62,350 nucleotides of DNA from Eledone cirrhosa (lineage: Eukaryota). The stretch spans positions 1 to 62,350 of the forward strand of contig CAXHJY010001139.1 of NCBI GenBank assembly GCA_964016885.1, given 5' to 3'. Below are positions 7,501 through 61,590 of the stretch, one piece after another (position 1 is the first letter of the stretch; every line of letters starts with the position of its first letter). The notes below the pieces were generated by a model. That model searched no databases, had not been told where the DNA came from, and worked only from the letters and a program-made list of their open reading frames with translations. A program made the translations under genes and the position numbers.

Positions 7501-10500
7501 ACACAGATAATGTCTATTGAGCTTGCTTATTGAGAAACACAAAATTCTAAACAAATTTCATATGTTTTGATATATATTTTTGCTAGACCAGTCATCGCTG
7601 TTTAATCAGCTCTTAAATATTACTGGAATTCTATAAGAAGCAAGGAAGTGAGTGGTCTTGATAAACGCTAACGAGCGAGAAACATCTGCCGATCACACTT
7701 CTTTCCTTTTGCCGAGAATATGTAAGTGACATAGTCACTTCTTTAAAGCTCATAGCGAATGGTCTTCTAAATGTTTTTAATTAAACATACAGTATATTGC
7801 TAAATATACTATACATATATTCATGTAGACATCGCTATTTTAGAGCTCTAATAAATATATATATATATATATATATATATAAGTAGAAGGGGTAATTTAA
7901 TTTGTTGGAAATCCGACAAATATAAATGTTTATAACTGATTTAGAGCACTCAACAGTTTCCTGGAGTAATATATATATATTTATATACATACATACCTAC
8001 ACACACACATATATATATATATATATATATATATATATATATATATATATATATATATAGTGTTAAGTATTTATTATATTGTGTTGATTATTACATATAT
8101 ATATATATATATATATATATATATATATATATATATATGTGTGTGTGTGTGTGTGTCATAGAGAGGTAGAAATATTCTTGTTATGCACAACGTAAGCGTG
8201 CAGTATCATAAATTTATATACTACACAAATATAAGTATGTATAAATATTTATATATTAGATATGTAGGCGTATATACACATGTATGCGGACATCCTTTGT
8301 ATCAATTCGCACACATACATACATTAAGTATGTAATCATATGTGCATATATGTATGTTGCTGAGCAAGTCAGTATGCGTGTGGGAGGTGTTTGTGTTTAT
8401 ATGTACCCCCCCCCCCCCCCCACACACACACACATATGTGTGTGTCTATATATATATATATATATATATATATATATATAAGGGTATATTTATCGGCATT
8501 CTGAGAGGTAGAGAAACAAATTTTGCCTGTCAGAAATGTCAAAAATCTCTTTGGTATACACACACACACATACACGCCCCCCCCCAAGTAAACACACACA
8601 CAAACACGTGTGTAAACATAAACGATTATGTATATATATCCATATACGTATACACACATATATATATATACATATATGTGTGTGTGTATATATATATATA
8701 TATATATATATATATATATATATATATAGGTGTGTGAGTTTATGTATATATATATATATGTGTGTGTGTGTATATATATATATATATATATATGTGTGTG
8801 TGTGTGTGTGTGTGTGTGTGTATATAGAAGAGTGTGTGTGTATATATATATATATATAGGTGTGTGAGTTTATGTATATATATATATATGTGTGTGTGTG
8901 TGTGTGTATATATATATATATATATATATATGTGTGTGTGTGTGTGTGTGTGTGTGTGTGTGTATACATAGAAGAGTGTATGAGTGCGTGGGCGTGGGTG
9001 TATCCGTCCGTTCTCAGATTAGCAATACAACAGATGGTTAAAGCTTCTGCTTACACCATTCTCTGAAATTAACAGAAGTGTCTTAGCTTTAAATGTTACC
9101 TTATCTATCTTTCTCCCTCACACACACACACACATACACACATGTATTTATATACACGTTGCCTCTCTCTTTCTCTCACACACATACATACACACACACA
9201 CGTCTTTATATACACATTGTCTCTCTATCTCACCCCCTCTCTCTCTTGTCTTTCTCTCTCTTTCTATCTATCTCCCATTGTATGTGTATATGTATATATA
9301 TATATATATATATATATGTATATATATATATATATATATATATATATATATATATATATATATATTATATATATATATATATATATATATATATATTATA
9401 TATATATATGTATATATATATATATATATATATATATATTATATATATATGTATATATATATATATATATATATATATATTATATATATATTATATATAT
9501 ATATATATATTATATATTATATATATATGTATATATATATATATATATATATTATATATATATTATATATATATATATATTATATATTATATATATATAT
9601 ATATATATATATATATATATATATATATATATATATATATATATATATATATGTATATGTCTTCATCATTGATAAACTTTCCTCTACGTCGGATGTACTT
9701 TACGAACAGTGAAGATACGTAGATTAATAGTTAGGGTGTTCGGTCGTCTCACAGTTCGGTCGTCTCACAATCGTAAATAATAGTTTAAAAAATAATTAAC
9801 CACAAGGATAGTTGTTTGATAGTTTTGGTTAGCCTTTTAAAGCTGAAATTTATTTTTCTTACGATTTTTTTTTACGCTTTTACGTTTTTAACAGATACGC
9901 CCATGAAACTCCTCGCTGGTTATTTGTTTCTTGTTTCTTGTTGTTTTTTTTTTAGGGGGGGGGGGGGGGGGCGCTGTATGGTACCGAACCGAAGAACTCC
10001 AAAACACCCTTCTCTGACACAGGTGTAACAATAAAAATTTATCAAATATTTTTATTTGTCCTAAGTGCGCAGAGAGTAAAAAAAAACCGTAGTTAGGGAA
10101 CCACTGGTTTGAAACTAAGATTAAGTAAATAACGTTAGCTTTTAACAGAGCTCTTCAAGAAATTCCTTTTCGTTTCTTTTACTTCTACTTTTCTTATATA
10201 TATATATATATATATATATATATATATATTGCCTTCAAATTCTTCTCCGTGTCCTGTCTTCTGTTATCTTATTTTTTCTTCTGTTTTCTGTCTTCTACTT
10301 GTCAGACTTTCGTTCCAGAACATTCCACCAATCTGACTTGTGATGAACTCACAAGCAGCTATCATCGAGCTGTCAGCCAAGAGACATTTGACCTTGCGGG
10401 ATTGTTATGTGTGTGTGGAGGTGTGTGTGCGTGGCGACAGACGGTCCATTGGGTGAGCAAGGCAGCTTCTGCAAATAATTAGTTGATTACATCTGGTTTC

Positions 10501-11454
10501 ACACACGCACTACGCATGGACACACACACACACACAAACACGCGTCTTTTTATACACACATATTTCCTTTTTGGCTCCGATGGATCTACGAATACCTAAG
10601 ACGGCGCCCTTACGACTCCACCTGTAGTCAATGGGCCCATACACACACACACCCACACATACATACATATGTATATACATATATATATAATTGTTGACAT
10701 TTATCATAAGACATTGGTAGTGACAGGAACTGTATGGAAGGGGAATTAACAGACACGTGGGCCACACAGTCGCAGTCGGTTTGGCGAAATATTACCCCAG
10801 CACCAAAAACGAAAGGGTCTTGATAACGCCAAGAGTAGAAATGGATGAGGAAGAGGGCAGTGGATTCAGAGAATAGCCAGGGGATAATGGACAAAATGGC
10901 CGCGTGGTAGATTTTACACGAATCTGTGTTGGCTAGTAGTTAAAGTGTTGAAATCATTATCAGAATGTCGAGGGTTCAATTTCTGGACCGGGTGGCCCAT
11001 TGTGTTCTTGATGGTAGTGGTAGTCTTATTTGTGGTAGTGGTGGTGGTAGTGGAAATTGTGGTAGTAGTTCTTTCATACAAAACAGTATATTTGACCAAT
11101 TACATCAATTGTCAAGTCAAGAATACTCAAACTATACGGCCATATAAAAAGATCAACTCGTGGTGCGAGTAGATTATGCCTGGAAGGAAGGTTACCTAGT
11201 AAGAAAAGCAGAGGCCGGCAGCAAAAACGATGGCTTGGCGATGTCAATTCAAGGACTGGACTTGATCTTTGCTCTTTATACTCTGCTCGTGATCGAACTT
11301 TGTGGAAAGAGATATCACATGTTAATGCGCAGTCTGCAACTGGCGGAGTTTAGCGTCACAAGAAGAAATATATTTGCATTTATCTAAAAAGCTTTCAATC
11401 ATGATTTTATATAAGTGCTTTTGTTAGATTGTTCTCTAAACATAAGATTAATAA

Positions 11455-11665
11455 TGATTTCTGATTTAGGTACAACATTTTGAGGGGATGGGAAAGTCGA
11501 TTAAATCTACCCCAGTACATTACTGTTACTTTATTTTATCGACCCCGTAAGGATGAACGGCAGAGTTAACCTCGGCGAGATTTGAACTCAGATCATGAAG
11601 GGCCGTAACTTTATGCTGCAAAGCATGGCGTCAGACCCTCTACCGATACTGCCAATCCACCGCCC
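11455..11665 (-). mobile_element. Meta-like tRNA SINE
   Basis: Same consensus; imperfect TSD acataag(a/c)ttaataatga. Older diverged plus-strand copies at ~12000-12120 and 12470-12600. Confidence 0.85.
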
Positions 11666-60344: not shown

Positions 60345-60655
60345 GTTGTATCATTTGGAGCCTGATTATTACCCCTTCAAAAGGGCTCTTGAACAGCTCT
60401 CAAGATGTACCCAAGGGTTTCCTCTTCTTATGCACACAGAAGGCAAGCACCATCCCCTAAGTCGATAGGGTCTTCTCTTCACATGTTCGAAATATAGGCA
60501 TCTTCTCCCATGAGGACAGACTCTCCTTTGATACAGATAGGTAGACAGCTTCTACCAGGCAGACAAGGTTCTCCTTCCTCATGTACAAAGGGTAGGTTTG
60601 ACAGCTTCCTCCAAGAAGACAGGATGACTTCTTCAAATTGGTTCAAATATTCTGA
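60345..60655 (-). mobile_element. Possible decayed non-LTR fragment (zinc-knuckle remnant)
   Basis: Translates with stops to ...ACLLCA*EEETLGYIL..., resembling the CxxC...ET..HIL..C motif. Confidence 0.35.
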
Positions 60656-61171
60656 TATATATATACACACACACATATATATATATATATATTTTTTTTT
60701 TTACCGTTGGTCAGTCAAAGGTAAACATTGAGGACCGAATGAATTAACTGTGGAGATATAAACGATACAGAAGCCAAAACCCCCTAAAAAACAAACAACC
60801 AAACAGTGTGTTCTGTTATTATTTCTGGCAATATTATTACAACAATATGACCCTCCCCAAGTATAACAATATATATATATACATAAATTATAATGGGGTA
60901 CACACATACACACCTACCCACAAGCACACACACATGCAAACACAACCATTATTGTACACAGATTTATATCTCTGTACACATGCATACTTGAAAATGTTTA
61001 GCCTTCTGTCACAATAAAATGATATATACTCTCACACACACCCATATGTATATATATATATATATACACACACACACACATACACCTCGCTCTCTTTCCT
61101 TATAGATATATAGAGAGGGACTGTATGTGTATGTATGTATGTATATATATATATATATATATATATATATA

Positions 61172-61590
61172 TACAATATTAAATAAATGGAAACTATATT
61201 TATAAAACCATATTTATTTCATTATATATATTTCGGGGATATCATATTAACAATATGCTATGCCTTCCTCAGACAAAATACAATATAAACAGTTTTATAG
61301 ATAAAATAAACTGCCAGTTTAACCTCTTCAAATGCAAGTCGGTGTTATAACGGTATGTCGAATCTATTTATCTATAAAACTGTTTATATTGTATTTTGTC
61401 TGAGGAAGGCATAGCATATTGTTAATATGATATCCCCGAAATATATATAATGAAATAAATATGGTTTTATAAATATAGTTTCCATTTATTTAATATTGTA
61501 AATATACTCCAAATATTTGTCGAGTGCTTTTATATCAGTTATAAATATTTACTAGTTGTAACCCAACTATTTTAAATATAACTTTCCATA
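61172..61590 (+). mobile_element. Family C HHR element with near-identical ~135-bp inverted arms
   Basis: 61172-61305 is the reverse complement of ~61362-61500; (TA)n on both sides. Confidence 0.85.
61392..61457 (+). ncRNA. Type I hammerhead ribozyme (family C variant); identical inverted twin at 61215-61280 (-)
   Basis: tattttgt CTGAGGA aggcatagcatatt gtt aatatgatatcccc GAA atatatat A atgaaata. Stem II differs in sequence from the 26125 and 50186 copies but still pairs. Confidence 0.8.

Follow-up and report, generated by a model that had tools for sequence, protein, structure and literature searches.

Stringent LINEs and SINEs, and the R2 element in its 3′ UTR, carry a short cis-acting RNA structure that is bound by the element's own protein and selects the template for TPRT. 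In telomerase, a TERT-bound RNA element (the template boundary, CR4/5, or the three-way junction) positions a short internal template. The reverse transcriptases (RTs) of Penelope-like retrotransposons (PLEs) are sister to telomerase. The features described here bear on template choice in PLEs and on the origin of their inverted copies and one-sided tail.

Members of the Hydra clade of PLEs (Craig et al. 2021, PMC8557442) share several traits with the families analyzed here: RWK, DKT, and CxCx5C motifs; a C-terminal GIY-YIG domain with CxxC and CxH; a hammerhead ribozyme in the repeat (predicted in the families here); (TA)n targets; and head-to-head truncated copies. For another element, Poseidon_Ac, two internal starts delimit the tail in vitro, and both strands are extended (Frangieh et al. 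2024, PMC11167929). Poseidon_Ac requires RNA up to +172, which lies 3′ of its start at +111–118 (PMC11167929).

The window, the whole 62,350-nt stretch of Eledone cirrhosa DNA that was analyzed, holds hammerhead and hairpin features of the Hydra-clade kind (Table 1). A sequence-only reading had described in it an ACTC…GAGT stem common to families taken to be unrelated. The stems cited are all in place: one in family A, three in C, one each in D and G, two in E, and one in F, where the element noted at 15320 has a stem spanning 36 nt arm to arm. Five more copies of family A, and one of family L, had been overlooked. The families are related, however: A, C, D, E, and F are the 3′ ends of Hydra-clade PLEs inserted in (TA)n, and the families form one clade within the Hydra PLEs in a tree made by a quick method only.

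Table 1. Hammerhead and hairpin features of the window
Feature	Position	Strand	Remark
Family A hairpin copy 1	5936..5962	-	ACUC/GAGU, bulge UU; within long+short head-to-head insert 5878-6061
Family C hairpin copy 1	7945..7967	-	in hairpin+tail orphan 7882-7968, which lacks a hammerhead
Family F hairpin copy 1	15368..15410	-	long loop, bulge UC; parent a Hydra-type ORF (L178)
Family F hammerhead CUGANGA core, predicted	15511..15517	-	
E-like hammerhead CUGANGA core, predicted	16390..16396	+	
E-like hairpin copy 1	16485..16508	+	GCUC/GAGC; CA at bulge position in this copy
Family L hairpin copy 1	17007..17053	-	GCUC/GAGC-CCU; parent Hydra-type (L103, L138, L150)
Family A hairpin copy 1	21762..21788	-	
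Family A hairpin copy 1	23628..23654	+	bulge UC
Family C short arm	25799..25894	-	stops ~4 nt short of would-be hairpin start
Family C hammerhead CUGANGA core, predicted	26133..26139	+	
Family C hairpin copy 1	26239..26261	+	long end 26322
Family A short arm, head-to-head pair	29384..29440	-	stops 5 nt short of hairpin position
Family A hairpin copy 1	29506..29532	+	long end 29577
Family A hairpin copy 1	29755..29781	-	
Family D short+short head-to-head pair	45982..46123	.	two hammerhead arms, each stopping just short of hairpin position
Family A hairpin copy 1	48894..48920	-	
Family D hairpin copy 1	49702..49723	+	GAGU-ACC; parent Hydra-type (L348)
Family G hairpin copy 1	49967..49995	-	insert 49888-50097
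Family E 3′ end	57506..57694	-	hammerhead core 57669-57675, hairpin 57552-57575, long end 57506
Family A hairpin copy 1	59986..60012	+	
Family C hammerhead CUGANGA core, predicted	61400..61406	+	
Family C hairpin copy 1	61506..61528	+	bulge UC

The parent frames bear this out. RWK stands near the N terminus in families E (L062, L163) and F (L178), reads RWR in the frame adjacent to family C (L062), and is replaced by a stop in the sole family D copy examined; DKG is changed to DKT in E and F. Family E frames (L061, L062, L163) contain, by eye, a C-terminal GIY-YIG domain, the CxCx5C linker, CxxC, and CxH, and no CCHH; related EN segments lie upstream of A, C, J, and L. In L061 and L062, a Hydra-clade ORF is flanked by a repeat whose sequence matches the window's family E 3′ end exactly. 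The repeat-to-repeat distance in L061 is 3,712 nt, so this 3.7-kb unit is longer than the "<3 kb" given as a tendency of the clade (PMC8557442). Family G, with at least 2,500 candidates genome-wide, showed no linked Hydra-type ORF in 50 loci with 1.5-kb flanks; one apparent link (L205) was rejected, as a TA tract and another element intervene. The 712-aa protein had no Pfam family match. Telomerases head the fold matches, aligning with model residues 1–479; for the predicted Hydra RT the nearest fold is that of telomerase at Z 16.6 (rmsd 4.4 over 358 residues), with a DGR RT within 1 Z of that match. The viral contigs searched contained no relative, and no RNA record was listed as containing the family E leader, a result silent on expression.

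The stems exceed chance. The loose pattern of the first reading matches 16 times in the window, whereas 30 local dinucleotide shuffles of it gave a mean of 2.1 matches (maximum 5). Across evenly spaced genome stretches totaling 1 Mb, the pattern matches 98 times against 44, 67, and 52 in the chance comparison, so about half of these genome matches are chance; a (TA)n tract lies 15–100 nt downstream of 54 of the 98, against 1–8 for six control patterns with 34–101 matches each. A strict descriptor, built after the data had been seen, gave 69 matches per Mb against 7–13 in shuffles. Together with the inner-pair shuffle described below, these controls rule out chance as the source of the stems. 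Three further pattern matches in the window (19344-19367+, 49461-49535-, and 45777-45815+) are attached to no known family and are doubtful. Rfam output for the whole window was dominated by (TA)n matches to miRNA models, and that of repeat finders likewise.

Hydra-clade PLEs carry a bulged hairpin twice in their leader, and the stem belongs to the first of these copies. The first description captured the shared stem and overlooked the rest of the structure, including the second copy. The full motif, GCUC-Y…R-UN-GAGC-ACU, has a lower stem that hardly varies, a bulge of 2 nt, and an inner stem that covaries. Because MAFFT, applied to 98 copies, left the 5′ arm unaligned, counts anchored solely on the GCUC and GAGC arms took the place of a covariance model. 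Among 100 instances drawn from 53 families, the first inner pair forms in 96 when the bulge is set to 2 nt (C-G in 62, U-A in 32); at bulges of 0, 1, and 3 nt, only 4, 4, and 12 are paired. Column shuffling gave a mean of 73.3, and none of 10,000 shuffles reached 96. With one row per family and copy, 42 of 44 rows pair, and in 13 of 22 families copies 1 and 2 carry different first inner pairs, both pairing. This pair, above the bulge, is the strong covariation signal. In the lower stem, most of the signal is conservation of the letters themselves: GCUC/GAGC occurs in 51 families, the compensated GCAC/GUGC in two, and wobble variants in two, beside about 11 non-pairing calls (four of them A-C), some probably spurious matches. 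The A-U to G-C swap emphasized earlier is the weakest covariation: the tree needs roughly two changes to account for it, and an uncompensated A-C occupies that pair in four metagenome families.

Alone, the hairpin folds weakly (z < −2 in two of ten folds), and the minimum-energy folds for families A, F, and G lack the lower stem. Six loci with both hairpin copies gave no Rfam covariance-model match at E ≤ 1, and family E drew weak unrelated Rfam matches only.

The leader is ordered as follows: hammerhead; about 50 nt; hairpin 1; hairpin 2, about 64 nt from start to start; and the ATG. Both copies are present in 24 of 27 marine-metagenome families with a hammerhead-to-ORF leader, and in 22 by a stricter rule; in these 22 the starts lie 55–89 nt apart (median 64). 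Hairpin 2 precedes the ORF start by 12–95 nt (median 25).

Is the hairpin then an accessory of the ribozyme? The sequence-only reading had placed it 45–100 nt after the cut, which holds for the 3′ end of the stem, not for its start: the predicted cut lies 25 (A), 27 (D), 42 (E), 57 (C), and 62 (F) nt before the stem, the values for A, D, and E being counted by eye. Hammerhead core and stems are found by pattern in C, D, E, F, and J. The ribozyme said to lie upstream is present as an intact same-strand CUGANGA core for five window copies only; the family A core is non-canonical even in longer copies, and family G has only a doubtful U3/G8 core more than 100 nt upstream of the hairpin. A tertiary partnership with the hammerhead, as had been proposed, retains scarcely any probability. 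The hairpin does lie always 3′ of the core on the same strand, 42–67 nt past GAAA in metagenome families. However, spacing from the cut ranges from 25 to more than 100 nt in the Eledone cirrhosa genome; the hairpin is retained beside non-canonical cores (A, G); a second copy exists some 64 nt further on; and many copies with a whole hammerhead stop before the hairpin. Moreover, three other hammerhead clusters (0, 1, and 5) lack it, as do all 26 Neptune-type PLE loci with a hammerhead-like core (0/26; the 30 GIY-YIG loci sampled represent few families). When the CACU letters were searched for a partner within the hammerhead, without a control, the outcome was an uninformative 11 of 22. What stands of the first observation is that the stems are present and above chance, and not the unrelatedness, the 45–100-nt spacing, or the general link to the ribozyme.

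The motif follows the termini, not the ribozyme, since insertion ends adjoin its copies. Insertions stop about 0–9 nt 5′ of one hairpin copy or the other, at a UA tract: the short end just before hairpin 1, and the long end just before hairpin 2. Genomic stubs consequently show hairpin 1 only, and the optional PLE "tail" is the stretch between the two ends. Measured back from a hairpin start, 18 of 23 ends lie at 0–6 nt and, in a gapped comparison, 18 of 27 ends (17 of 20 families) lie at −1 to 8 nt; several of the ends outside these ranges (5/23 and 9/27) miss them through poly-T indels or aligner overshoot, judged by eye. In the Eledone cirrhosa genome, 186 of 216 ends fall into the short or the long class, the latter being bounded by the reference sequences used, and 164 of the 186 sit directly on (TA)n. 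Family G has long ends almost exclusively. Where A, E, F, J, L, and D occur as tandem copies, copy 2 begins about 4–9 nt beyond the long end; in E (long loop), F, and D it has degenerated. At least two UA occur in the 8 nt before 24 of 44 hairpins, compared with 143 of 1,686 other leader windows.

These letters might instead belong to a promoter or to translation control, with ends adjoining them through chance UA tracts, which is very improbable. Copy 2 does sit close ahead of the ORF, GAG-YR-CUY is near-palindromic, and the pLTRs of other PLEs contain promoters (PMC2377424); but inner-stem covariation in a fixed register has no reason under a duplex-DNA model, and insertions do not end at the other UA-rich positions of the leader.

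Head-to-head pairs combine the two classes unevenly. Among 32 pairs, 29 are long+short, none is long+long, and three are short+short, against expected numbers of 15.9, 6.6, and 9.6. (Absent long+long pairs could reflect their loss as longer palindromes.)

The sequence-only reading had raised an RT-binding or priming signal. A conserved structured element with ends 0–9 nt to its 5′ side fits that idea, and action as RNA would complete it: the hairpin is probably a docking site on the RNA, its two copies each fixing a start of reverse transcription, and the tail would be what separates these starts. This suggests a model in which the GIY-YIG domain would nick (TA)n, and the freed TA 3′ end would pair with a UA tract of the element RNA. 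The protein, seated on the invariant GCUC/GAGC-ACU face and the 2-nt bulge, would hold the UA tract in the active site. A single RNA would serve both target strands, one of them priming at site 2 and its partner at site 1, a putative protein dimer possibly coupling both primings, and the outcome would be a head-to-head insert with one long arm and one short arm.

An unlikely alternative acts on DNA: the hairpin would fold in a single-stranded intermediate, GIY-YIG would cut or fold-back synthesis would stop 5′ of it, and the ends would be resolution points. Indeed, Craig et al. attribute the tail to EN-mediated resolution (PMC8557442); self-priming, proposed for PLE inversions (PMC3846280), likewise predicts long+short pairs; and other GIY-YIG enzymes cut ssDNA site-specifically (PMC11893778). 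The strand asymmetry of the hairpin (G-U 6 versus A-C 4) is not significant and does not separate RNA from DNA. Nevertheless, cutting of finished copies should yield TA-backed hairpin+tail orphans as often as short ends, whereas at most 3 of 13 hairpin-starting fragments sit behind a TA tract, compared with 90 short ends. That site 1 can be a primary end is suggested by the three short+short pairs and by copies (L118, L122, L103, L138) that include an ORF yet terminate at the short end; the identical geometry at both ends fits a single priming rule; and internal starts have been demonstrated for Poseidon (PMC11167929). Presumably, the hairpin works as RNA rather than as ssDNA.

An RNA 3′-end processing signal, with cleavage of the transcript immediately 5′ of one hairpin or the other before ordinary end-primed TPRT, would produce the same two end classes, and the invariant stem face and bulge suit a protein-recognized site. 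Freely mixed long and short RNAs should however give long+long pairs (0/32 found), and Poseidon starts internally without processing (PMC11167929), which makes this route improbable.

The docking-site model can be extended, tentatively and at rather less than even chances. The twin hairpins might constitute a telomerase-like template-positioning signal: a PLE protein dimer would grip both and prime both nicked strands at the UA tracts, and the hairpin of about 30 nt would be a portable start tag for any RNA. If true, this reading would explain both the PLE tail and head-to-head insertions.

The motif is readable in published coral, sea-cucumber, and copepod consensi (PMC8557442): by eye, the hairpin is legible in Hydra-2_Amil, Hydra-1_Ajap (twice), and Hydra-2_Ajap, with variants in Hydra-1_Crog and Hydra-1_Amil. 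The published boundaries of Hydra-1_Ajap and Hydra-1_Crog lie 2 and 6 nt, respectively, before a hairpin copy (by eye). The text and tables of that paper examined do not mention the hairpin ("stem-loop" has no match), and its HHR table gives 20 nt of 3′ flank. Five 9-mers gave four matches in the six Hydra consensi; in the Naiad/Chlamys comparison they gave three outside the Hydra file, none with a visible partner arm, in text whose line breaks can hide matches. No description of the twin-hairpin motif was found in the literature searched, with Repbase Reports, subscription journals, and some supplements outside that search. The 25–35-nt motif, found in cnidarian, echinoderm, arthropod, and Eledone cirrhosa elements, predicts both ends within a few bases, and is also a practical marker for annotating Hydra-clade ends.

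Non-LTR retrozymes are likewise short hammerhead repeats derived from PLE ends (PMC7229834; bioRxiv 2026.07.22.740005), but they form tandem arrays with a proposed circular RNA, whereas the window pieces are dispersed, 5′-truncated insertions of coding elements; the sole tandem hammerhead array sampled (cluster 0) lacks the hairpin. Poseidon_Ac resembles the Hydra families in having AT-rich targets and two ends 3′ of the hammerhead that bound an optional tail (PMC11167929). Its tail, however, is 30–40 nt within the ORF, as against the 55–89 nt of leader in the Hydra clade, and its start lies in an AC-rich stem-loop with no repeated signal named, whereas each Hydra-clade end has its own conserved hairpin. 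The motif is absent, by eye, from the Poseidon RNA printed in Fig. S1 of that paper, which limits the in vitro parallel to one of position.

[quoted passage not shown] The likeness to telomerase includes the RT fold and, in the proposed model, an internal template paired with a repeat primer. Telomerase adds repeats and PLEs do not, and a common fold does not show a common RNA site. Still, with the PLE RT sister to telomerase, a protein-bound positioning hairpin would bear on the origin of telomerase RNA recognition.

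Every stem, ACTC...GAGT or GCTC...GAGC, that the sequence-only reading had listed downstream of the ribozyme cleavage site is present in the window. A loose pattern, RCTC-N-GAGY-RCY, matches there 16 times; 30 local shuffles average 2.1 matches. A sample of the same genome (3.0 Gb), taken as 100 stretches of 10 kb at even spacing, has 98 matches (44-67 in shuffles); (TA)n lies 15-100 nt downstream of 54 of these, compared with 1-8 for six control patterns. The proposed spacing of 45-100 nt held only in part: the predicted cut and the stem start are separated by 25-62 nt (families A, D, E, C, and F).

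Families A, C, D, E, and F are 3' ends of retrotransposons. Family E has at least 1,726 candidates in the genome; their 5' truncation is variable and their 3' end, on (TA)n, is sharp. Its repeats flank an ORF in loci L061 and L062. This ORF encodes RWK, DKT, YRDD, CxCx5C, C-terminal GIY-YIG, CxxC, and CxH features, the marks of the Hydra clade of Penelope-like elements (PLEs; PMC8557442). Hydra-type frames also adjoin families A, C, D, and F (see table) and two further families, J and L. For family G, 50 loci examined yielded no parent. Fifteen own-genome RT rows form a single branch (support 98) among metagenome relatives in a quick tree of 85 rows. At the outer pair, G-C is kept in E and L and A-U is present in A and F/J/C, so the A-U to G-C swap needs about two changes on this tree. 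In all, 21 multi-locus clusters bear the hairpin. (One chimeric insert, L360, passes from a family D hammerhead into the hairpin and tail of family L and may reflect a template switch between families.)

Positions and loci of the repeats and hairpins
Feature	Source	Position	Strand	Observation
Family A	L118, L122, L129			Hydra-type frames adjoin (upstream or downstream); core upstream of window's copies CUGAGAA or UUGAGAA; long stem III capped by palindromic loop; most copies cut or inverted at stem II
Family C	L126, L140, L149			Hydra-type frames adjoin (upstream or downstream)
Family C 3' region, 5' of hammerhead	window; L140, L149, L062	25802-26322		octamer ATTTGCAT(A), an snRNA-type enhancer motif
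Family D	L348			Hydra-type frame adjoins (upstream or downstream)
Family E	window	57506-57694	minus
Family F	L178			Hydra-type frame adjoins (upstream or downstream)
Family G	window; L197-L221, L370-L394	49888-50097		long ends almost exclusively
Second, non-conserved hairpin (C, E, F)	window	26323-area, 57506-area and others		predicted folds, several tails, between hairpin 1 and long end
Further hairpin-bearing families	L135	3354-3417	plus	in some of these families, 30-60 nt loops with bulge and first inner pairs retained
	L123	3347-3386	plus
	L087, L072, L154, L080
Neptune-type family, 3' ends	L031-L058			U3-A8 hammerhead core; fixed 30-nt piece often after TA tract beyond 3' end, possibly this clade's tail
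Tandem array	L113	6619-8170 and on	minus	310-nt hammerhead units, retrozyme-like; no hairpin
Head-to-head hammerhead family	window	55046-55546		one of three hairpin-free clusters

A protein search found 1,195 relatives among 7,995 scored; from an alignment of 42, 78 metagenome loci and 15 MAG loci were retrieved (71 families at 80% nucleotide identity). Fifteen Hydra-clade loci (L330-L344) lie within bacterial genome bins, probably as host DNA carried into assemblies. In 27 families the ORF lies no more than 330 nt from a hammerhead-like core; their leaders contain two 3' arms in 24 (one looks spurious; 22 families pass a stricter rule), one in 1, and none in 2. It is 42-67 nt from GAAA to the start of copy 1, 55-89 nt from there to the start of copy 2, and 12-95 nt from copy 2 to the ORF.

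The full motif, GCUC-Y…R-UN-GAGC-ACU, comprises a lower stem, a two-nucleotide bulge, and an inner stem that covaries. With only GCUC and GAGC as anchors (100 distinct instances, 53 families), the first inner pair forms in 96 instances when two 3' bases are bulged; if 0, 1, or 3 bases are bulged instead, it forms in 4, 4, and 12, respectively. Of the pairs formed with two bulged bases, 62 are C-G and 32 U-A; with one row per family and copy, 42/44 are paired. The second pair forms in 64/95 (shuffle mean 41.6) and the third in 50/62 (24.9), in shuffles that disregard kinship. In 13/22 families, copies 1 and 2 differ in inner-pair type. The bulge is UU, UC, or UA in 95 instances, and ACU follows in 87. 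The lower stem is near-invariant: GCUC/GAGC in 51 families; compensated GCAC/GUGC in two distant ones; and an unpaired A-C in four.

Read by eye, published consensi from corals, sea cucumbers, and copepods show the hairpin, whose motif was not found in Rfam. Nor was it found downstream of 26 hammerhead-like cores at Neptune-type loci or in three other hammerhead clusters. Only five of the window's hairpin copies still have a CUGANGA core. That the hairpin acts as a hammerhead partner is very improbable.

Truncated ends were compared with the same-family tandem leader. A hairpin start follows the end at a distance of some 0-8 nt in 18/23 cases (ungapped) or 18/27 (gapped; 17/20 families), where chance predicts about 12%. 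Among 216 own-genome ends (window plus a 1-Mb sample, 12 family references), two classes were found: 90 short ends directly before hairpin 1 (79 on TA) and 96 long ends (85 on TA), with 30 remaining. Hairpin 2 starts about 4-9 nt beyond the long end in tandem copies of A, E, F, J, and L; one tandem copy of D has a variant form of it there. At least two UA occur in the 8 nt 5' of 24/44 hairpins, versus 143/1,686 windows elsewhere in leaders. Head-to-head pairs number 42, and the 32 that could be assigned to a class comprise 29 long+short and 3 short+short, with no long+long (15.9, 9.6, and 6.6 expected under independence). Later splitting of old copies is ruled out as the source of short ends, because at most three hairpin+tail orphans lie 3' of a TA tract. 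(Of 15 family G copies viewed, about 9 begin no more than some 20 nt past a doubtful hammerhead cut, on its 3' side, as though cleavage fixed their 5' ends; query design may bias this count.)

We infer that the hairpin is an RNA element bound by the PLE's own protein, setting two priming sites. The protein would bind the hairpin in its RNA form; a nicked TA end would base-pair with the UA tract; and priming would take place at two sites, one per hairpin, each with a different target strand. Against this reading, the hairpin is weak when folded in isolation, some own-genome families carry a degenerate copy 2, and G-U versus A-C counts show no preference for RNA over DNA. The main rival, a DNA-level stop or cut signal, is unlikely. 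An RNA processing signal is more doubtful still, and promoter or translation control slightly more so; like hammerhead partnership, both fit less well than the DNA-level signal. The predicted Hydra protein (pLDDT 90) most closely resembles telomerases over residues 1-479 (Z 16.6); this likeness is expected of a PLE and does not locate an RNA site.

Neither the clade of these elements nor the tail is new. No description of the twin hairpin and its link to both ends was found in the literature searched. The twin hairpin would be a cis-acting signal that governs template choice, unusual in its geometry in that it is doubled and lies 3' of the start. Unlike the Hydra-clade leaders, the printed Poseidon_Ac RNA lacks this motif (PMC11167929). 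That study reports two internal start sites in vitro, bounding the tail, with both strands extended and RNA 3' of the start required. The priming proposed for Hydra-clade elements would match that of Poseidon_Ac.
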